Positions 7,715 to 64,000 of a DNA stretch of 64,000 nucleotides are shown piece by piece (position 1 is the first letter of the stretch; each line of letters begins with the position of its first letter). The stretch is from Escherichia coli. GTDB taxonomy: Bacteria; Pseudomonadota; Gammaproteobacteria; Enterobacterales; Enterobacteriaceae. The stretch is taken from NCBI RefSeq assembly GCF_003018255.1, contig NZ_CP027440.1, one strand, 5' to 3'. A program made the translations under genes and the position numbers. The notes below the pieces were generated by a model. That model did not search any database. It was not told the DNA's origin and saw nothing but the letters and a program-made list of their open reading frames with translations.

Positions 7715-8185
7715 TTAAGATGTTGATTCGGCGCGAGCGAGGGTAAAAATATCGTAAAAAGATAGTTCACCTTTACGGACGATCATTTTTTGCAGTTGTT
7801 CTTTATGAACATCCGCGACACGCGGAGAGTTCAGGATGGCTTCAACTAGCGCGGCAGGTACAAAGCGCGTGTTGTACCATTCGCCGTTATAGCAAACGCG
7901 GAAATCCAGCACGTCGATATCTTCATAGCGGTAGCGTGGGTAGACATCGAAAAAGAAGAAACCATTAAGCAGGATAAATAATACAACCAGTAGCCAGACA
8001 GAGCCTGAAAGCGTTTCGGACTGCAACATCACTGCCAGGGTGGCAAAAAAAGCAACGTACATACCGATAAACAACCCCGGATGTTTACGGATAAAACTGA
8101 TACTAAAGCGGGGTTTGTTGTCGCGTTTTTCGCGGGTATTTAGAGACTCAATTGTTTCGGTCAGCAGGCGTTGTATTTCGGTCAT
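7715..8185 (-). CDS. ylaC: Inner membrane protein YlaC (156 aa)
   Basis: Internal Met of ORF 7715..8224 ([27 protein letters not shown]...). Confidence 0.85.
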
Positions 8186-51984: not shown

Positions 51985-52638
51985 CTTAAGAAGTCCGTCG
52001 GTCAGGGGGAGCATGAACTCTCCATCCTCACCGGAGTTGAGCTGGTTGTCAAACGTGGCGAGACCATCGCACTGGTGGGCGAGTCGGGATCGGGTAAGTC
52101 AACTTTGCTGGCGATCCTCGCCGGGCTGGATGACGGCAGCAGTGGCGAAGTGAGTCTGGTGGGACAACCGCTACATAATATGGACGAAGAAGCGCGGGCA
52201 AAGTTGCGCGCGAAGCACGTCGGCTTTGTTTTTCAGTCATTTATGTTAATTCCTACCCTTAACGCGCTGGAAAACGTCGAGCTTCCGGCGCTGCTGCGCG
52301 GTGAGAGTAGCGCGGAAAGTCGTAACGGGGCGAAAGCGTTGCTCGAACAGTTAGGGCTGGGTAAACGTCTGGATCATCTTCCGGCACAGCTTTCCGGCGG
52401 TGAACAGCAACGAGTGGCGCTGGCACGAGCCTTTAACGGTCGACCTGATGTGCTGTTTGCCGACGAACCCACCGGCAATCTTGACCGACAGACGGGCGAT
52501 AAAATTGCCGACCTGCTATTTTCCCTCAACCGTGAGCATGGCACCACGTTGATTATGGTGACCCACGACCTGCAACTGGCGGCACGCTGCGACCGCTGCT
52601 TACGGCTGGTGAACGGGCAATTGCAGGAGGAAGCATGA
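51952..52638 (+). CDS. ybbA: ABC transporter ATP-binding protein YbbA (228 aa)
   Basis: Walker A GESGSGKST, signature LSGGEQQR. Confidence 0.92.
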   Translation: MPAENIVEVHHLKKSVGQGEHELSILTGVELVVKRGETIALVGESGSGKSTLLAILAGLDDGSSGEVSLVGQPLHNMDEEARAKLRAKHVGFVFQSFMLIPTLNALENVELPALLRGESSAESRNGAKALLEQLGLGKRLDHLPAQLSGGEQQRVALARAFNGRPDVLFADEPTGNLDRQTGDKIADLLFSLNREHGTTLIMVTHDLQLAARCDRCLRLVNGQLQEEA

Positions 52639-55049
52639 TTGCACGTTGGTTCTGGCGCGAATGGCGCTCGCCGTCGCTATTAATTGTCTGGCTGGCGCTA
52701 AGCCTGGCGGTGGCCTGCGTGCTGGCGCTGGGCAATATCAGCGATCGCATGGAGAAGGGCTTAAGCCAGCAAAGCCGGGAGTTTATGGCGGGCGATCGGG
52801 CGTTGCGCAGTTCACGCGAAGTGCCACAAGCGTGGCTGGAGGAAGCGCAAAAGCGCGGCCTGAAAGTCGGCAAGCAGCTGACTTTCGCCACAATGACCTT
52901 TGCAGGCGACACACCGCAGCTGGCGAACGTCAAAGCGGTGGATGATATCTACCCGATGTATGGCGATCTGCAAACTAATCCCCCTGGCCTGAAACCGCAG
53001 GCGGGCAGCGTATTGCTGGCCCCACGCCTGATGGCACTGCTTAACCTGAAAACAGGCGACACCATCGACGTGGGTGATGCCACCTTGCGGATTGCCGGAG
53101 AAGTGATTCAGGAACCGGATTCCGGTTTTAACCCCTTCCAGATGGCTCCGCGTCTGATGATGAATCTGGCGGATGTCGATAAAACCGGAGCCGTGCAGCC
53201 GGGGAGTCGGGTCACCTGGCGCTATAAATTCGGCGGCAGCGAGAACCAGCTCGACGGCTATGAGAAATGGTTGTTACCCCAGCTTAAACCTGAACAACGC
53301 TGGTACGGTCTGGAACAGGACGAAGGCGCGCTGGGGCGATCGATAGAACGTTCGCAACAGTTCCTGCTGCTTTCGGCGCTTCTGACCTTGCTGCTGGCGG
53401 TGGCGGCGGTTGCGGTGGCGATGAATCATTACTGTCGCAGTCGCTACGACTTGGTGGCGATCCTCAAGACGCTGGGGGCAGGGCGAGCGCAACTGCGTAA
53501 GTTAATCGTCGGTCAGTGGTTGATGGTGCTGGCGCTTTCAGCCGTTACCGGTGGTGCGATAGGCCTGTTGTTCGAAAACGTGTTGATGGTGCTGCTCAAG
53601 CCCGTTTTGCCTGCTGCACTACCGCCAGCCAGCCTCTGGCCGTGGTTGTGGGCGCTGGGCACCATGACGGTCATCTCGCTGCTGGTGGGGCTACGACCGT
53701 ACCGCTTGTTGCTGGCAACGCAGCCTTTACGCGTATTACGTAATGATGTGGTCGCGAACGTCTGGCCGCTGAAGTTTTATCTGCCGATTGTCAGTGTGGT
53801 GGTTGTGCTGCTGCTCGCCGGATTAATGGGTGGCAGCATGCTGCTTTGGGCGGTGCTGGCGGGCGCGGTAGTACTGGCTTTGCTGTGCGGTGTGCTGGGC
53901 TGGATGCTGCTGAATGTACTTCGCCGCATGACGCTGAAATCGCTACCTCTGCGCCTGGCGGTTAGCCGCCTGTTACGTCAGCCGTGGTCAACGTTAAGCC
54001 AGCTTTCGGCATTTTCGCTCTCCTTTATGCTGCTGGCGCTGTTGCTGGTATTGCGTGGCGATCTGCTCGACCGCTGGCAGCAGCAGCTACCTCCAGAAAG
54101 CCCGAACTACTTTTTAATTAACATCGCCACAGAACAGGTAGCACCGCTAAAAGCGTTCCTCGCGGAACATCAGATAGTCCCGGAATCGTTTTATCCGGTG
54201 GTGCGGGCGCGGCTGACGGCGATTAACGATAAGCCGACAGAAGGCAATGAAGATGAGGCGCTCAATCGCGAACTCAATCTTACCTGGCAAAATACGCGGC
54301 CCGATCATAATCCGATTGTCGCCGGTAACTGGCCGCCAAAAGCCGATGAAGTGTCGATGGAAGAGGGGCTGGCGAAACGCTTAAACGTTGCCCTCGGTGA
54401 TACCGTGACTTTTATGGGCGATACCCAGGAGTTCCGCGCTAAAGTGACCAGCCTGCGCAAAGTGGACTGGGAAAGTCTGCGGCCTAATTTCTATTTTATT
54501 TTCCCTGAAGGGGCATTAGACGGGCAACCGCAGAGCTGGCTTACCAGTTTCCGCTGGGAGAATGGCAACGGCATGTTGACGCAACTCAACCGCCAGTTCC
54601 CTACTATTAGCCTGTTAGACATTGGCGCGATTTTAAAACAGGTCGGTCAGGTGCTGGAGCAGGTAAGTCGGGCGCTGGAGGTGATGGTGGTGCTGGTCAC
54701 CGCCTGCGGTATGTTGCTGTTGCTGGCACAGGTGCAGGTGGGAATGCGTCAGCGTCATCAGGAGCTGGTGGTGTGGCGCACACTCGGTGCGGGGAAAAAA
54801 CTGCTGCGTACCACGTTGTGGTGTGAGTTCGCCATGCTTGGGTTTGTTTCTGGCCTGGTAGCCGCAATTGGTGCGGAAACGGCGCTGGCAGTGTTGCAGG
54901 CGAAAGTGTTTGATTTTCCGTGGGAGCCAGACTGGCGATTGTGGATTGTGCTGCCGTGCAGCGGTGCACTGCTGCTGTCGCTTTTCGGCGGCTGGCTGGG
55001 TGCGCGACTGGTTAAGGGTAAGGCGCTGTTCAGGCAGTTTGCGGGATGA
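52635..55049 (+). CDS. ybbP: FtsX-like ABC transporter permease YbbP (804 aa)
   Basis: Two FtsX-like TM modules; 4-nt overlap with ybbA. Confidence 0.92.
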   Translation: MIARWFWREWRSPSLLIVWLALSLAVACVLALGNISDRMEKGLSQQSREFMAGDRALRSSREVPQAWLEEAQKRGLKVGKQLTFATMTFAGDTPQLANVKAVDDIYPMYGDLQTNPPGLKPQAGSVLLAPRLMALLNLKTGDTIDVGDATLRIAGEVIQEPDSGFNPFQMAPRLMMNLADVDKTGAVQPGSRVTWRYKFGGSENQLDGYEKWLLPQLKPEQRWYGLEQDEGALGRSIERSQQFLLLSALLTLLLAVAAVAVAMNHYCRSRYDLVAILKTLGAGRAQLRKLIVGQWLMVLALSAVTGGAIGLLFENVLMVLLKPVLPAALPPASLWPWLWALGTMTVISLLVGLRPYRLLLATQPLRVLRNDVVANVWPLKFYLPIVSVVVVLLLAGLMGGSMLLWAVLAGAVVLALLCGVLGWMLLNVLRRMTLKSLPLRLAVSRLLRQPWSTLSQLSAFSLSFMLLALLLVLRGDLLDRWQQQLPPESPNYFLINIATEQVAPLKAFLAEHQIVPESFYPVVRARLTAINDKPTEGNEDEALNRELNLTWQNTRPDHNPIVAGNWPPKADEVSMEEGLAKRLNVALGDTVTFMGDTQEFRAKVTSLRKVDWESLRPNFYFIFPEGALDGQPQSWLTSFRWENGNGMLTQLNRQFPTISLLDIGAILKQVGQVLEQVSRALEVMVVLVTACGMLLLLAQVQVGMRQRHQELVVWRTLGAGKKLLRTTLWCEFAMLGFVSGLVAAIGAETALAVLQAKVFDFPWEPDWRLWIVLPCSGALLLSLFGGWLGARLVKGKALFRQFAG

Positions 55050-55062
55050 TGAGAGTAAATAA

Positions 55063-55096
55063 GGGGCGTTCTGGTTGAATGGAACGCCTTGTTTAA
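55063..55096 (+). terminator. Rho-independent terminator after ybbP
   Basis: GGGGCGTTCtggttgaatgGAACGCCTT followed by GTTT. Confidence 0.7.
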
Positions 55097-55477
55097 ATTA
55101 ATTCTACAATATGTTTCATTGATGATGTTATTGAATTGGTGATTTCCTATCTTTCTATTGCTGATATTAATCTGAATCGGTGGAGTTTAATGATTTTAAA
55201 TATAGCCCTACAAAAATAACTCAGACTAATAAAATCATAAATCATATGCGTTGAATGGATATTATCCATATAGTGAATTTGTTGATAATGAATTCATCTG
55301 TGCTAAAAATGTTAGTTTAATAAAATATTGAAAGTGACCTGTAATAACAGTTGTTGTTGATTGAGAACAAATAAGTTTATGTGAAAAATATATAAATACA
55401 TTAGCTGGTCTTGTGTGTCATTTTATTTTTTTGTTGCTAACACAGGGATATGAACAATAACTAAAAGGGCACTTTAT

Positions 55478-56932
55478 ATGAGCGGAAAACCAGCGGCGCG
55501 TCAGGGAGATATGACTCAGTATGGCGGTCCCATTGTCCAGGGTTCGGCAGGTGTAAGAATTGGCGCGCCCACCGGCGTGGCGTGCTCGGTGTGTCCGGGC
55601 GGGATGACCTCGGGCAACCCGGTAAATCCGCTGCTGGGGGCGAAGGTGCTGCCCGGCGAGACGGACCTTGCGCTGCCCGGCCCGCTGCCGTTCATTCTCT
55701 CCCGCACCTACAGCAGCTACCGGACGAAGACGCCTGCGCCGGTGGGGATTTTTGGCCCCGGCTGGAAAGCGCCTTCTGATATCCGCTTACAGATACGCGA
55801 TGATGTACTGGTACTCAACGACAACGGCGGACGGAGCATTCACTTTGAGCCGCTGCTGCCGGGTGAGGCGGTGTACAGCCGCAGCGAGTCCCTGTGGCTG
55901 GTGCGTGGCGGTAAGGCAACGCAGCCGGACGGCCACACGCTGGCACGGCTGTGGGCGTCGCTGCCGCCGGATATCCGGTTAAGCCCGCATCTTTACCTGG
56001 CGACCAGCAGCGCACAGGGGCCGTGGTGGATACTGGGGTGGTCTGAGCGGGTGCCGGGTGCTGAGGACGTACTGCCAGCGCCGCTGCCGCCGTACCGGAT
56101 GCTTACCGGGCTGGCGGACCGCTTCGGGCAGACGCTGACGTACCGGCGTGAGGCCGCCGGTGACCTGGCCGGGGAAATCACCGGCGTGACGGACGGTGCC
56201 GGGCGGGAGTTCCGTCTGGTGCTGACCACGCAGGCGCAGCGGGCGGAAGAGGCCCGTAAACAGCACACCGCTTCCTTATTTTCCCCTGACACCCCCCGCC
56301 CTCTTTCAGACTCTGCGTTCCCCGACACACTGCCCGGTACGGAATACGGCCCCGACAGGGGCATCCGTCTTTCGGCGGTGTGGCTGATGCACGACCCGGC
56401 ATACCCGGAAAGCCTGCCCGGTGCGCCACTGGCGCGGTACACGTATACGGAAGCCGGTGAACTGCTGGCGGTATATGACCGCAGCAATACGCAGGTGCGC
56501 GCTTTCACGTATGACGCGCAGCACCCGGGCCGGATGGTGGGGCACCGTTATGCGGGAAGGCCGGAGATGCGCTACCGCTACGACGATGCGGGGCGGGTGG
56601 TGGAGCAGCTGAACCCGACAGGCCTGAGTTACCGCTACCAGTATGAGCAGGACCGCATCACCATCACGGACAGCCTGAACCGGCGAGAGGTGCTGCATAC
56701 AGAAGGCGGGGCCGGGCTGAAGCGGGTGGTGAAAAAAGAACTGGCGGACGGCAGCGTCACGCACAGCGGGTATGACGCGGCAGGAAGGCTCACGGCACAG
56801 ACGGACGCGGCGGGACGGCGGACAGAGTACGGCCTGAATGTGGTGTCCGGCGATATCACGGATATCACCACGCCGGACGGGCGGGAGACGAAATTTTACT
56901 ATAACGACGGGAACCAGTTAACGGCGGTGGTG
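55478..56932 (+). pseudogene. rhsD: rhs core gene, N-terminal 485 codons (RhsD-like), interrupted by an IS
   Basis: MSGKPAARQGDMTQYGGPIVQGSAGVRIGAPTG PAAR-like start, YD repeats. The reading frame runs into the IS terminal repeat (…NQLTAVV|[12 protein letters not shown]). Confidence 0.85.
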
Positions 56933-56967
56933 TCCTTGACCCACGATATTCAGACAGTCGTTGTATC

Positions 56968-57849
56968 TTAAGTTGACGTTACCCGCTGACGTCGATATTC
57001 CCTTGGTGAGAGATAACCTAACGCACTATGCGGATGGGTTTCATTGTAATGCTCGATCGCCACTGCAAGGTTATGCAATGCCGTTCTTACATTCGGTTTC
57101 GGCATGAACGCGATGTAGTCTTCTTTCATCGTTTTCACGAACCTTTCTGCCATTCCATTGCTCTGAGGGCTACTGACTGCCGTTGTGCAGGGCTCCAGAT
57201 TCAACTCTCTGGCGAACTGCCGTGTTTCATGAGCTGTATAAGCCGAACCGTTATCAGTCAGCCACTGGATTGGCCGTTCCGCTCCTTTATCGCCAAAGCG
57301 TTTTTCTATTGCTCCTAACATGACATCCTGCACCGTTGCTTTGTCATAACCTCCCGTGCTTGCGGCCCAGTCTATGGCTTCACGATCGCAACAGTCCAGT
57401 GCGAACGTGACACGCAGTTTTGCGCCATCATCACAACCGAACTCAAAGCCATCGGAACACCAGCGCTGGTCGCTTTCCTTCACCGATATTCGGCCTTTAT
57501 GTTCCCGCTGCGGCCGTGAAGGTTTGTCATGTAACAACAACAGGTTATTTTCGCTCATTATCCGATAAACGCGCTTTGCATTCACGAACGGCACTCCTTT
57601 GTTACGGGACTGTCGTCTGAGAATGGCCCAGACACGACGATAGCCATATGTCGGCATATCGCTGATGATATCAAGGATACGTGCTAACACTTCCGCATCC
57701 GCAGCCTCATCACATCTGCGACGACGTTTATTCGGCTTATTACCAGATGTTTTCATCCGTTGTGCCAGTTGCGCACGCGACACGCCCAGAATACGGCTTA
57801 CCAGGGTTATTCCTTGTCCGTTGGCAACAAGGGCGCATGCGCTATCCAT
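56968..57849 (-). CDS. IS transposase OrfB (DDE integrase domain), likely expressed as an OrfAB fusion by -1 frameshift
   Basis: 293-aa ORF, similar to IS2 InsD (…[10 protein letters not shown]…DCCDRE…WLTDNGS…HPHSALGY…). Confidence 0.85.
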
Positions 57850-58199
57850 TTTCGCGACTGACCATACTCCACCGCTTCTTTGAGGATCTCAACTTCCATG
57901 GTTTTCTTACCCAGCAAGCGCTGTAACTCTTTTATTTGTTTTATAGCGGCAGCCAGTTCTGAGGCAGGAACGACATCCTCTCCGGCAGCAACAGCAGTGA
58001 GACTTCCTTCCAGATATTGTTTTTTCCACTTAAACAACAGGCTGGGCTGAATACCATGCAAACGCGCCACATGGGACACCGTCATACCGGGTTCCATTGT
58101 CTGCTGAATAATGGCGATTTTTTCCTGAGGAGTTTTACGTTTACGAAGCTCCTGCCCCAGCAAAATTCCAGTCATCTCAAAATTAGCACTAGTAGACAT
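57807..58199 (-). CDS. IS transposase OrfA (HTH), IS2 InsC-like
   Basis: …[78 protein letters not shown]… Start taken at the internal Met, because the first Met of the ORF would lie inside the terminal IR. Confidence 0.75.
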
Positions 58200-58263
58200 A
58201 TATCCAAGCCTATCTCTTATTTTAAGATACATCCACTGTCTGGCGTTTCAAGGGGCCGGTTCA

Positions 58264-61038
58264 CAGTTAACGGCGGTGGTGTACCCGGACGGGCTGGAGA
58301 GCAGCCGGGCATATGATGAGCTGGACAGACTGGTATCGGAGACATCGCGCAGCGGGGAGACAGTACGCTACCGCTACGATGACGTGCACAGTGAGTTACC
58401 GGCGACGACAACGGATGCGACGGGCAGCACCCGGCAGATGACCTGGAGCCGCTACGGGCAGTTGCTGGCCTTCACCGACTGCTCGGGCTACCAGACCCGC
58501 TATGAATACGACCACTTTGGTCAGATGACGGCGGTCCATCGTGAGGAAGGCATCAGCACGTACAATACCTATAACCCGCGCGGCCAGCTGGTCAGCCGGA
58601 AAGACGCACAGGGCCGTGAAACGCGGTATGAATACAACGCCGCAGGCGACCTGACTGCCGTTATCACCCCGGACGGCAACCGGAGCGAGACACAGTACGA
58701 TGCGTGGGGAAAGGCGGTCAGCACCACGCAGGGCGGGCTGACGCGCAGTATGGAGTACGATGCTGCCGGACGTGTCATCAGCCTGACCAACGAGAACGGC
58801 AGTCACAGCGACTTCAGCTACGATACGCTTGACCGGCTGGTACAGCAGCGCGGCTTTGACGGGCGGACGCAACGTTATCATTATGACCTGACCGGAAAAC
58901 TCACGCAGAGTGAAGATGAGGGGCTTGTCATCCTCTGGTACTACGATGAATCGGACCGTATCACTCACCGCACGGTGAACGGCGAACCGGCAGAGCAGTG
59001 GCAGTATGATGGCCACGGCTGGCTGAGAGAAATCAGCCACCTGAGCGAAGGCCACCGTGTTGCCGTCCACTATGGCTACGACGATAAGGGCCGTCTGACC
59101 GGGGAGCGCCAGACGGTGGAGAACCCGGAGACGGGGGAACTGCTGTGGCAGCATGAGACGAAACAGGCATACAACGAACAGGGGCTGGCAAACCGCGTCA
59201 CGCCGGACAGCCTGCCGCCGGTGGAGTGGCTGGCCTATGGCAGCGGTTATCTGGCGGGCATGAAGCTGGGCGGGACGCCGCTGCTGGAGTACACGCGCGA
59301 CCGCCTGCACCGGGAGACGGTGCGCAGCTTCGGCAGCATGGCAGGCAATACAGCCGCATATGAACTGACCAGCACTTACACCCCCGCAGGCCAGTTACAG
59401 AGCCGGCACCTGAACAGCCTGGTGTTTGATTGTGACTATAACTGGAATGACAACGGCGACCTGATGCGCATCAGCGGCCCGCGACAGACGCGGGAATACG
59501 GCTACAGCGCCACGGGCAGGCTGGAGAGCGTGCGCACCCTCGCACCGGACCTGGACATCCGCATCCCGTATGCCACCGACCCGGCGGGCAACCGGCTGCC
59601 GGACCCGGAGCTGCACCCGGACAGTACACTCACAGTGTGGCCGGATAACCGAATCACCGAAGACGCGCACTACCTGTACCGTTACGATGAATACGGCAGG
59701 CTGGCGGAGAAGACGGACCGCATCCCGGCGGGTGTGATACGGACGGACGACGAGCGGACCCACCACTACCACTACGACAGCCAGCACCGCCTGGTGTTCT
59801 ATACGCGGATACAGCATGGCGAGCCACTGGTCGAGAGCCGCTACCTTTACGACCCGCTGGGCCGCCGGACGGGTAAACGGGTGTGGCGTCGCGGGCGTGA
59901 CCTGACAGGATGGATGTCGCTGTCGCGTAAACCGGAGGAGACGTGGTACGGGTGGGACGGCGACAGGCTGACGACGGTGCAGACTGACAGCACGCGTATC
60001 CAGACGGTGTACCAGCCGGGAAGCTTCACACCGCTCATCCGCATCGAAACAGACGTGACCGAACTGGAGAAAGCGCAGCGGCGGAGCCTGGCGGAGAAGC
60101 TCCAGCAGGAAGGGAGCGAGGACGGACACGGCGTGGTGTTCCCGGCTGAACTGGTGCGGCTGCTGGACAGGCTGGAGGAAGAAATCCGGACAGACCGCGT
60201 GAGCAGTGAAAGCCGGGCGTGGCTTGCGCAGTGCGGGCTGACGGTGGAGCAACTGGAAAAACAGGTGGAGCCGGAATATACACCGGCGCGAAAAGTTCAT
60301 CTTTACCACTGCGACCACCGGGGCCTGCCGCTGGCGCTTATCAGCGAAGACGGCAATACGGTGTGGAGCGCGGAGTATGATGAATGGGGAAACCTGCTTA
60401 ATGAGGAGAACCCGCATCATGTGTATCAGTCATACCGTCTGCCGGGGCAGCAGCATGATGAGGAGTCGGGGCTGTACTACAACCGGAACCGGTACTACAA
60501 TCCGTTGCTGGGACGATATATTACTCAGGACCCGATTGGGCTGGCGGGGGGATGGAGTCTGTATGCGTATCCGCTGAATCCGGTGAATGGTATTGATCCA
60601 TTAGGATTAAGTCCTGCAGATGTAGCGTTAATGCGAAAAAAAGAACAATTAAACCATCAAAGAGCATGGGATATATTATCTGATACTTATGATGATATGA
60701 AGAGATTAAATTTAGGTGGGACTGATCAATTTTTCCATTGTATGGCATTTTGTCGAGTGTCTAAATTAAATGACGCTGGTGTTAGCCGATCAGCGAAAGG
60801 GCTGGGTTATGAAAAAGAGATTAGAGATTACGGGTTAAATATGTTCGGTATGTACGGCAGAAAAGTAAAGTTATCCCATTCTGAGATGATTGAAGATAAT
60901 AAAAAAGACTTGGCTGTAAATGAACATGGGTTGACATGTCCATTAACACAAGATTGCTCAAATAGATGTATTGATTATATTAATCCAGAGCATAAAAAAA
61001 CGATAAAGGCTTTACAAGATGCTGGCTATCTCAAGTAA
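58264..61038 (+). CDS. rhs core gene continuation (YD repeats, RHS core, PxxxxDPxGL) plus variable C-terminal toxin domain; separated from its 5' part by the IS
   Basis: The frame resumes exactly: QLTAVV|[18 protein letters not shown]… DPIGLAGG demarcation motif at aa about 755 of this ORF, followed by an about 165-aa AT-rich C-terminal tip. Confidence 0.85.
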
Positions 61039-61510
61039 CATCTCAAAGATGGTAATATTTATTTTTGCTATTATAATCGTTGTTTTTTTATGCGTGACTA
61101 CTTATCTTTATTTACACAAAGATGAATCTCTTGTAAGTAAGCATTACATAAACTATATGGCAATACCAGAAAGTGATGGGGTTTTTACATGGCTCCCAGA
61201 TTTTTTTCCGCACGTAGCGGTGGATATATCAATATCCACAAATGTAGAAGATGATTATTTTTTTTCTTATTTTTCCCTAACAATCGATGATGGGGGGAGG
61301 TTTAAGAAAACATTGACTGTGAGGGCCAGGGAACAAGTGGCGAAAATCGTATCAGAGAATGATCCAGATACAAAAAAAGTGTGGTGTAAATATGGTAAAA
61401 TACCAGGGCAAGGGGATAGCGTAAACCTTTTTTTTGTTGGTGAAATTAATGTTACGCATTATTTTATAACAAATATTGGAGCTGGGTTACCTGATGCTTG
61501 TGCAGAGTAA
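61019..61510 (+). CDS. Putative Rhs immunity protein (163 aa, N-terminal TM helix), AT-rich
   Basis: ORF overlaps the rhs stop; an alternative start is at 61049. Hydrophobic segment [22 protein letters not shown]. Its position immediately 3' of the Rhs C-terminal tip is canonical for rhsI. Confidence 0.6.
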
Positions 61511-61876
61511 TTGCTTGAATTAAGAGTCTATCCCATATCGAAGTCGTCAACTTCGTAGTGAGGAAAAGTATAATCCCTGACTGAGAAAAGACATGTCGGC
61601 TATTGTGTAAAGCCATATAGCTCAGACGATGAATATCTACTCGTATTCAGTTGTTTATTGAGGGTGAGTTCCGACCCTGAAACAACAAATAAAATGAACA
61701 GCCAGAGAGTTTACATAGAATTGCACTGGTCTTTTACGATATCTGACATTGTGTAATACATATTCAGCCATGCATTAATTAAAATGTTACGTGTTTAATG
61801 TGAGTCCCTATCTGAAAATAAATAATCCTTCCGGATTAAAATAAATTCTCGCCGGGAAAGAAAGAGGAAATAAACC

Positions 61877-62010
61877 ATTAGCGGAAAACCAGCGGCACGC
61901 CAGGGTGACATGCCCCAGTACGGCGGCCCGATAGTCCAGGGTTCAGCGGGGGTACTGATAGTCGCGCCGACTGCATCGAGAACTCCATACAACTTTTTAC
62001 GGAACGTCAC
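61877..62010 (+). pseudogene. Orphan rhs 5' remnant (codons 2 to about 35 of an rhs gene, no start codon)
   Basis: SGKPAARQGDMPQYGGPIVQGSAGV is 80-90% nucleotide identity to positions 55481-55570 of the rhs start, then diverges and stops. Confidence 0.6.
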
Positions 62011-62024
62011 CTGATAAAATTTGT

Positions 62025-62432
62025 TCAGTATCGTCTTTTGAGATTCTCAAGGTTATGGAGTAACCAGACAGAACGGACACCACTGTCGGAGATAAAAACC
62101 CCCTGTTTACGCAGCTCGTTGCTGGCCCGGTGCTGACCATGTGTCGGGAAAGCGACGGCGTAATCAACAACAGCCTGTTCAATTGCCTCATCGGTACGGT
62201 TCTTAAGGTTAGGAGCGCGGCGACTACGATTAATCTGCGCATCCACACCGCCTTCAGCGGCCAGTTCGCGGTAACGATAAAACGTATCACGCGAAACGCC
62301 CATGATTTTACAGGCTTTTGATACGTTGCTGAGTTCTTCAGCCAGATTGAGCAAACCGGCTTTGTGTTTGATGACGGGATTGGCAGTATGAAGCATGAGA
62401 GTTACCTCTTGTTTTGGATAAGGATTCGACAC
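62025..62432 (-). pseudogene. ylbG: IS481-like transposase N-terminal HTH fragment (YlbG-like), truncated
   Basis: 135-aa ORF with HTH CKIMGVSRDTFYRYRELAAEGG and no integrase core downstream. Confidence 0.6.
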
Positions 62433-62511
62433 TCATATCAAAACCGGTAACTCTCAACCTTTCAAGGCCATGTGTCAGATCAAGTCGCGACTAATACAAA
62501 TACGTCCCTCA

Positions 62512-63621
<1,110 letters not shown>

Positions 63622-63674
63622 TCAAATCAGCTTGCGCGCTATTTTACGCGCCAACGCGCAAGGAAACTTGATTT

Positions 63675-64000
63675 TTAACTGCGTGGGTTGCCGAAAATTT
63701 CTAAAAATCCGCTGATTTCCGGCCTGCGCTGGGTAAACAAGGTCACAATATCTTCTATCGCTTTGCCGCTGCCAAATTTGCGCCATGCCAGACTCAATGG
63801 TGAAGGAGGGCGCATCGTTGGGATTACCCGGCTGACCAGTTGTTGATTATCGATCATTGACTGGCAAAGTGATTTTGGCAAAAAACCAATGCCAACGCCC
63901 GCCAGATGGGCGGCGATTTTCGTTTCCATATCGGGAACAATAATCTCTTTTTGCCCCGGCAATCGCCAGGCGACGCGTTTGGTTAGTGTGCGGGCGCTGT
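63675..64000 (-). CDS. allS: LysR-family allantoin regulator AllS, C-terminal part only (gene continues beyond the window end)
   Basis: The 95-aa ORF is the end of a LysR substrate-binding domain; the first M of the listed ORF is internal because the frame is open to the window edge. Confidence 0.7.

Follow-up and report, generated by a model that had tools for sequence, protein, structure and literature searches.

Why should an insertion sequence (IS) that looks like IS2 be bordered by a direct repeat three times as long as the 5 bp expected of IS2? The question is raised by the rhsD locus in a 64,000-nucleotide stretch of Escherichia coli DNA (assembly GCF_003018255.1, contig NZ_CP027440.1), here called the window, in which an rhs core gene is split by an IS3-family element with an exact repeat on both sides. 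An earlier note, made from the letters of the window alone, had described this arrangement and, taking the element for an IS2-like one with a 5-bp target-site duplication (TSD), had proposed that two rhs copies recombined around the IS, that gene conversion took place, or that the repeat is an unusual transposition product. The split gene and the long repeat were confirmed. In our view, however, it is highly probable that the repeat is the normal footprint of an active element, which belongs to the IS2 group but to a clade of its own with ISEcl1 and ISEc48, and which inserted in rhs and inactivated it.

The repeat is an exact match of 19 nucleotides, CAGTTAACGGCGGTGGTGT, at 56915-56933 and 58264-58282. 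The 16-mer contained in it, CAGTTAACGGCGGTGG, is found in only two places in the window, and from shuffled sequences 0 matches are expected. The tips of the element were fixed by comparison with more than ten other copies: the alignments with E. coli copies start at 56930 or 56931 and most of them end at 58263, and direct inspection of ten fetched copies gave tip positions that agree. The element, which lies on the minus strand, extends from 56931 (TGTCCTTGACCC...) to 58263 (...GGCCGGTTCA), and its length is 1333 bp, not 1331 bp as first given. Because the tips are at these positions, the duplicated target is 16 bp, not 19 bp, with the left copy at 56915-56930 and the right copy at 58264-58279; the other three bases of the match (TGT) arise because the tip of the element happens to agree with the rhs sequence beyond the duplication. 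Realignment of the true termini did not, therefore, reduce the repeat to 5 bp.

A related genome shows the locus without the element. The window is collinear with E. coli JNE112863, which has the closest intact allele, over the whole segment between mdlB and allS (99.0-99.5% identity), and the sole structural difference, of 1349 bp, is accounted for by the element (1333 bp) and 16 bp. The single rhs gene of JNE112863 at this locus is intact and contains the 16-mer once (position 8001 of L002, as the JNE112863 locus is numbered here); when the two rhs segments of the window, left and right of the element, are aligned to it, they overlap by exactly 16 bp (8001-8016). As the 16-mer is single in the intact allele, the repeat must be a genuine TSD. 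We also considered whether a part of the repeat could be donor-flank DNA brought in by the spacer of a circle junction; this was ruled out, all 16 bp being present in the empty site.

Insertion sequences are classic breakpoints of assemblies, and a short-read mis-join or a sequence duplicated at the borders of a repeated element could in principle produce such a repeat. In favour of an artefact, a search of 5426 complete E. coli genomes gave no instance of the junction between rhs and the element, and the exact-match protein index has no entry for the 497-amino acid protein of the truncated rhs gene. An artefact would not, however, reproduce the exact length class which the clade shows in many independent complete genomes and plasmids (see below), and the rest of the window is collinear with the finished genome and contains no other anomaly. 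We therefore find an assembly artefact scarcely credible. From the absence of the junction from all 5426 genomes, the insertion is private, and probably recent.

That the length of 16 bp is a property of the element became apparent from its other copies. A search with OrfB, the catalytic part of the transposase, in species-representative genomes gave 80 loci, in which the tips were located by the conserved core of the terminal repeats (for the element of Sodalis by copy-to-copy alignment). Ten other copies of the same element on E. coli chromosomes and plasmids were inspected, and eight of these have perfect, mutually unrelated flanking repeats, either of 16 bp (L003, L005, L009 and L012) or of 15 bp (L010, L011, and L004 and L007, which are at the same site); another E. 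coli copy of the same element, L017, has 15 bp. Relatives in seven other genera, with OrfB sequences 73-80% identical and with the tips TGA...TCA, have 15-16 bp and in one case 14 bp; ISEcl1-type copies with a 15-16-bp TSD are those at L027, L030, L031, L040, L042 and L056. The whole clade was sampled at 22 distinct sites, in Escherichia, Yersinia, Atlantibacter, Citrobacter, Scandinavium, Klebsiella, Pantoea and Candidatus Sodalis. Twelve of the sites have a duplication of 15 bp, nine have one of 16 bp and a single site has one of 14 bp, while 5 bp was seen at none; two of the repeats (L042 and L059) contain one mismatch each. No clear target-site motif emerged across the 22 sites, where the duplicated sequences are 56% A+T. 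Three plasmid copies (L014-L016, ISEc48-like and ISEcl1) were uninformative on TSD length as they sit against IS2 or IS1 ends. Given that a duplication of 15-16 bp was found at 21 other unrelated sites (14 bp at one of them), the 16-bp repeat in rhs is the standard footprint of this element.

These figures also bear on the recombination that had been suggested, which in its most concrete form assumes that two different rhs paralogues each received a copy of the element, at positions offset by about 11 bp and with a 5-bp TSD in either case, and that recombination or gene conversion then left a hybrid with a 16-bp repeat. Some observations speak for this idea: E. coli genomes contain several near-identical rhs cores (at a median of 3-4 places), strain DETEC-S792 has two tandem rhs genes at the same locus, and the core of the rhs gene in the window is more diverged from JNE112863 (about 97% identity) than its flanks (100%), which suggests past conversion among cores. 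Yet the same footprint at 21 sites outside rhs calls for no special event, and a 5-bp duplication, which the scheme needs twice, was seen at no copy of the clade. Moreover, divergence from JNE112863 is the same in both halves of rhs (97.2% and 97.4% identity), the genes on either side are 100% identical, and the toxin, the immunity gene and the flanks match its single-rhs locus, hence there is no sign of a chimera. We consider a hybrid of two rhs genes very improbable, and the proposals of gene conversion or of an aberrant transposition product are not supported either.

The expectation of 5 bp came from taking the element for IS2. For elements of the IS2 clade, whose OrfB is 62-65% identical to that of the window element and whose left tip is TAGA..., 13 sites were compared, distributed over Escherichia, Klebsiella, Enterobacter, Superficieibacter, Scandinavium, Lonsdalea and Aeromonas, and each of these sites has a duplication of exactly 5 bp. 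In a neighbour-joining tree of OrfB the two TSD classes form two separate clades. Both classes are present in E. coli and in Klebsiella, therefore it is the element and not the host that sets the length of the TSD, and an explanation by host factors can be discarded. The duplication in rhs is thus target-derived, and the rule is 15-16 bp in the clade to which the element belongs and 5 bp in that of IS2, the two classes corresponding to separate clades of the transposase.

According to the literature, TSD length in the IS3 family is characteristic of the subgroup: 4 bp for IS407, 5 bp for IS2 and 3 bp for the others (PMC10045372; the value for IS2 is also given in PMC10425158, which cites ISfinder). 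PMC10045372 contrasts this conserved range of 3-5 bp with the IS481, IS1202 and IS481EU elements, which fall in classes of about 4-6, 15-17 and 24-29 bp, and states that the origin of the long classes is unknown. In full-text searches we came upon no account of an IS3-family lineage with a TSD of 14-16 bp beyond a passing remark, made without comment, that an ISEcl1 insertion was 'flanked by two 14-bp DRs' (direct repeats; PMC10913469), although individual ISfinder entries may record it. It is conceivable, and we suggest it tentatively with doubt slightly outweighing belief, that the ISEcl1/ISEc48 clade is a hitherto unrecognised lineage of the IS3 family which cuts its target one helical turn wider than the sister lineage IS2 (15-16 vs. 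5 bp).

Several observations weigh against the interpretation of the repeat as a regular footprint, or at least limit it. A duplication is altogether absent from many copies (L006, L008, L018, L033, L037, L039, L041 and about 25 copies in Sodalis). Two of them are among the ten E. coli copies mentioned above, and one of the two, L006, is a recombinant, as its right flank is that of L004. We attribute the repeat-less copies in general to recombination between copies, which is directly shown only by L006; a like reading was given to such copies in the study of IS1202 (bioRxiv 10.1101/2022.12.17.520857). In PMC10425158 ISEcl1 is tabulated, on the basis of ISfinder, as a member of the IS2 group with a 5-bp repeat, but this appears to be the generic value of the group. 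The OrfB sequences of the two clades differ only by substitutions and by three indels of 1-2 residues, and no structural cause of a different stagger is evident among them. Finally, the transposition pathway and the stagger are deduced from the footprints which the element has left in genomes, and what we say about them below is to be read accordingly.

Two sets of copies without a duplication deserve description. The insect endosymbiont Candidatus Sodalis endolongispinus (NZ_JAFJYC01, L043-L096) contains at least 40 copies of a clade element, which are 95-99% alike; six of the 31 copies with both ends found keep a TSD of 14-16 bp and about 25 have none, a pattern that points to extensive recombination between copies. 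The other set (L018-L025), from several E. coli assemblies and metagenome contigs, represents one 1325-bp copy which has no TSD and adjoins a phage-type integrase gene, and some of these have an IS110-family element inserted in the orfA region. The widely shared context of this copy contrasts with the private insertion in rhs.

How could closely related transposases make such different duplications? IS911, IS2 and IS3 transpose by a copy-out-paste-in pathway, in which one 3' end of the element attacks the DNA adjacent to the opposite end; by replication a circle arises in which the two ends abut, OrfAB inserts the circle into the target by two staggered strand transfers, and repair of the gaps creates the duplication. 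The clade element most likely moves in the same manner, as expected for the IS3 family: a -1 frameshift would give the OrfAB transposase, and a circular copy with abutted ends would form and integrate into the target. The two strand transfers would take place 15-16 nucleotides apart, as opposed to 5 nucleotides in IS2, and gap repair would then duplicate 15-16 bp, the stagger being set by the element rather than by the host or the locus. The difference from the IS2 stagger is 10-11 bp, about one turn of the DNA helix, and the nearly even mixture of 15- and 16-bp duplications fits 5 + 10.5 bp. We infer that in the transposase complex of the clade the active sites are spaced wider by one helical turn, i.e. 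the two active sites may contact one and the same face of the target DNA at a distance greater by one turn, or the target may be bent less. In the OrfB alignment 33 columns have non-overlapping sets of residues in the two clades, and the tip of the left end is TG in the clade and TA in IS2. As only substitutions and small indels separate the OrfB clades, the determinant of the stagger must be subtle.

Two of the plasmid copies, on plasmids unrelated to each other, lie tip-to-tip with the left end of an IS2 (TAGACTGGCCCCC...), one in the E. coli ETEC1720 plasmid NZ_CP122860.1 (L014, 300-470) and the other in the Klebsiella pneumoniae plasmid pMB8251_1, NZ_CP103561.1 (L016, 300-470). In the former the right tip of the ISEc48-like element is 2 bp (AT) from the IS2 tip, and at least 378 bp of IS2 are present; in the latter the right tip of ISEcl1 is 1 bp (G) from a 98-bp remnant of the IS2 left end. 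For the circle junction of IS2 itself a spacer of 1-2 bp is reported, hence the transposase of the clade may recognise an IS2 end as a target.

The genes and ends of the element place it in the IS3 family. An open reading frame (ORF) of 141 amino acids, orfA (57807..58232, minus strand), encodes the helix-turn-helix (HTH) regulator and N-terminal part of the OrfAB transposase; the true start of orfA likely lies further inside this ORF, and a 131-amino acid version of OrfA has no entry in the exact-match protein index. The second gene, orfB (56968..57849, minus strand; 293 amino acids), encodes the catalytic DDE (rve) part. The two overlap by 43 nucleotides, with orfB in the -1 frame relative to orfA (58232 - 57849 = 383 = 3x127 + 2). 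This two-ORF arrangement is that of the IS3 family and predicts that OrfAB is made by programmed -1 frameshifting, and near-identical copies are labelled 'IS3 family transposase, programmed frameshift' by the NCBI Prokaryotic Genome Annotation Pipeline (PGAP). The exact OrfB sequence occurs on 882 E. coli contigs, and the Pfam domains of the protein identical to it are HTH_21, rve and rve_3, as in a DDE transposase; the IS3-family model NF033516 was passed with 211 bits (cut-off 160). The imperfect inverted repeats end, as is usual for the family, in 5'-TG...CA-3', and their internal arms of 21 nucleotides are 90% complementary. The right inverted repeat (IRR, 56931..56971, minus strand), downstream of orfB, has the tip 5'-TGTCCTTGACCC and a CAGACAG core 20 nucleotides from the tip (it was compared with the ends of IS2 and ISEcl1); the left one (IRL, 58222..58263, minus strand), upstream of orfA, has the tip 5'-TGAACCGGCCCC, where IS2 has TAGACTGGCCCC.

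Within the family the closest relationship is to the IS2 group, as the best NCBIfam matches are IS2 TnpA and TnpB, so that the description as IS2-like was right about family and group. The element is nevertheless neither IS2 nor an isoform of IS2: the nucleotide identity is 69% over 1117 bp, OrfB is 62-65% identical to that of IS2 and IS2-like elements, and both proteins score below the cut-offs of the IS2 models (201.6 bits vs. 229 for OrfA with the repressor TnpA, 411.6 vs. 597 for TnpB). The 16-bp duplication at rhs, like the duplications of 14-16 bp at all 22 sites of the clade, departs from the 5 bp given for the IS2 group. Membership of the IS481/IS1202 families was also rejected, with 100.8 bits against a cut-off of 224 for NF033577 and with the two-ORF layout of IS3; the likeness to these families is one of behaviour only. 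The nearest relatives are an ISEc48-family copy (88% nucleotide and 89% OrfB identity), ISEc48 being the nearest family named by NCBI, and ISEcl1 (about 78% and 77%), which is abundant on Klebsiella plasmids. The about 78% identical Klebsiella copies are 1336 bp long, the same length as given for ISEcl1, an IS3-family element, in PMC5001619, and on the IncFIB plasmid of L016 such a copy adjoins an IS1 at about 14 kb. We took the Klebsiella element to be ISEcl1 by way of the 'IS1X1-ISEcl1' module described on IncFIB-family Klebsiella plasmids (PMC7319535), and not from the ISfinder entry. For the window element itself the annotation sources and cluster names gave no specific element name, only 'IS3 family transposase' or 'integrase core domain'.

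The interrupted gene is the rhs gene of the rhsD locus (ybbP-rhsD-ybbD), as judged from the gene order ybbA, ybbP, rhs, a YbbD-family gene, ylbG, mnmH and allS. Its 5' part (55478..56930, plus strand) is 97-98% identical to rhsD and RHS element core protein genes of E. coli, and the 3' part (58264..61038, plus strand) comprises what remains of the core, together with the RHS core-end motif and a toxin region at the C-terminus. The insertion point had been called frame-preserving, to which no functional meaning can be given: the N-terminal ORF continues into the element, where it ends at 56971 after 497 amino acids, and the 3' part is without an upstream start, its longest internal ORF being 58276-61038. 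The intact gene downstream (61019..61510, plus strand; 163 amino acids), annotated as 'YbbD family protein' in relatives, gave no Pfam match and is presumed from its position to be the cognate immunity gene. When the element and one copy of the repeat were removed in silico, an uninterrupted Rhs ORF of 1403 amino acids resulted, with DUF6531, RHS_repeat in eight stretches (E 1e-72) and PF03527 RHS at residues 1157-1193. By its RHS/YD repeats, core-end motif, variable C-terminus and the small gene downstream the reconstructed product is a predicted Rhs polymorphic toxin, and its C-terminal region and the immunity gene, both of them intact, agree with their counterparts in JNE112863 and DETEC-S792 at 99.9-100% identity.

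Two further observations concern the history of the locus. Along the alignment with JNE112863 the identity is about 97% in the core (55478-60400), as against 99.9-100% in the flanks (52635-55477 and 60401-63700), toxin tip and immunity gene, a pattern that fits an exchange of sequence between paralogous rhs cores which has nothing to do with the insertion of the IS. In DETEC-S792 (L001, NZ_CP116067.1, 4857064-4868411) the segment from ybbP to allS holds two complete tandem rhs genes with differing C-terminal tips and immunity genes (ydcD-type and ybbD-type) and with ISAs1 copies between them; the toxin tip and immunity gene of the window are 100% identical to the second of these sets.

The restoration of an intact toxin of more than 1400 amino acids, which the earlier note had anticipated, thus holds on paper, and from it a switchable toxin gene had been proposed, i.e. 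that precise excision via the repeat restores the toxin at a biologically useful rate. No domain is missing from the reconstructed ORF, and both toxin tip and immunity gene are undamaged; a 16-bp repeat should also favour slippage-type deletion more than a repeat of 3-5 bp. But the proposal rests solely on this arithmetic of excision, and any gene hit by the element has the same theoretical route of reversion, the repeat being a by-product of insertion anywhere. Nor is there a sign that the insertion is conserved, no second instance of it being present among the 5426 genomes, and a deletion between repeats of 16 bp that are separated by 1.3 kb should be a rare event. We see only a slight chance that the locus works as a switch; it is, in our reading, an ordinary, private and probably recent IS knock-out of an Rhs toxin.

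For the rhs locus itself the finding is of little import, being the private loss of one Rhs toxin. It matters more for the use of TSD length as a signature of families and subgroups (3-5 bp for IS3, 5 bp for the IS2 group), a rule which an enterobacterial clade of the IS2 group breaks in a quantised manner. Annotation tools that look for repeats of 3-5 bp will mis-call the ends of the clade elements or miss their footprints. Since ISEcl1 is common beside mcr-8, qnrS and other resistance genes, correct footprints matter for reconstructing how such regions were assembled. With their longer repeats, insertions of the clade should also revert by slippage more easily than those of other IS3-family elements. 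The biochemistry of IS2 transposition is established. A sister of IS2 with 62-65% identity and another TSD class would allow the determinant of the stagger to be mapped with chimeras. If the interpretation is correct, IS2 and ISEcl1 are the closest pair of transposases in this analysis that differ in TSD class, with no gain or loss of a domain and with both present in E. coli, and they would provide a tractable system for finding out what sets the discrete staggers of IS481, IS1202 and IS481EU elements; the authors who described the 4-, 15- and 25-bp classes of IS481EU stated that they had 'no clue' about the origin of the longer ones.

It is instructive to set the locus and the element beside the systems they resemble. 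The rhs gene of the window is like other Rhs elements at the E. coli rhsD locus in its DUF6531 domain, RHS repeats, core-end motif, C-terminal toxin and small downstream gene. Other strains also have IS elements in the rhsD region (IS1 in H62-H80, ISAs1 in DETEC-S792), but the insertion of this element at this point was not found in any of the 5426 complete E. coli genomes. With IS2 (K-12 insC/insD) the element shares a length of about 1.33 kb, the -1 overlap of orfA and orfB, an rve-type DDE transposase and homologous terminal repeats of about 41 bp with a CAGACA core 20-21 nucleotides from the tips; it differs from IS2 in nucleotide sequence (69% identity), in its scores below the TnpA and TnpB cut-offs, in the left tip (TG vs. 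TA) and in the TSD (15-16 vs. 5 bp). ISEcl1 (of Enterobacter cloacae, and common on Klebsiella IncFIB plasmids) and ISEc48 belong to the same clade and have the same TGA...TCA tips, but the divergence is sufficient to make the window element a distinct one. The IS481, IS1202 and IS481EU elements are similar in having related DDE transposases and discrete TSD classes about one helical turn apart, although they are other families with a single-ORF transposase. Their classes correspond to clades of the transposase and to differing terminal repeats (bioRxiv 10.1101/2022.12.17.520857; PMC10045372), e.g. in the IS1202 transposase subgroups ISAba32 (5-6 bp), ISTde1 (15-17 bp) and IS1202 (27-28 bp; bioRxiv 10.1101/2022.12.17.520857). 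The IS1202 classes go with group-specific indels of 5-30 residues, whereas IS2 and the ISEcl1/ISEc48 clade are separated by indels of only 1-2 residues.

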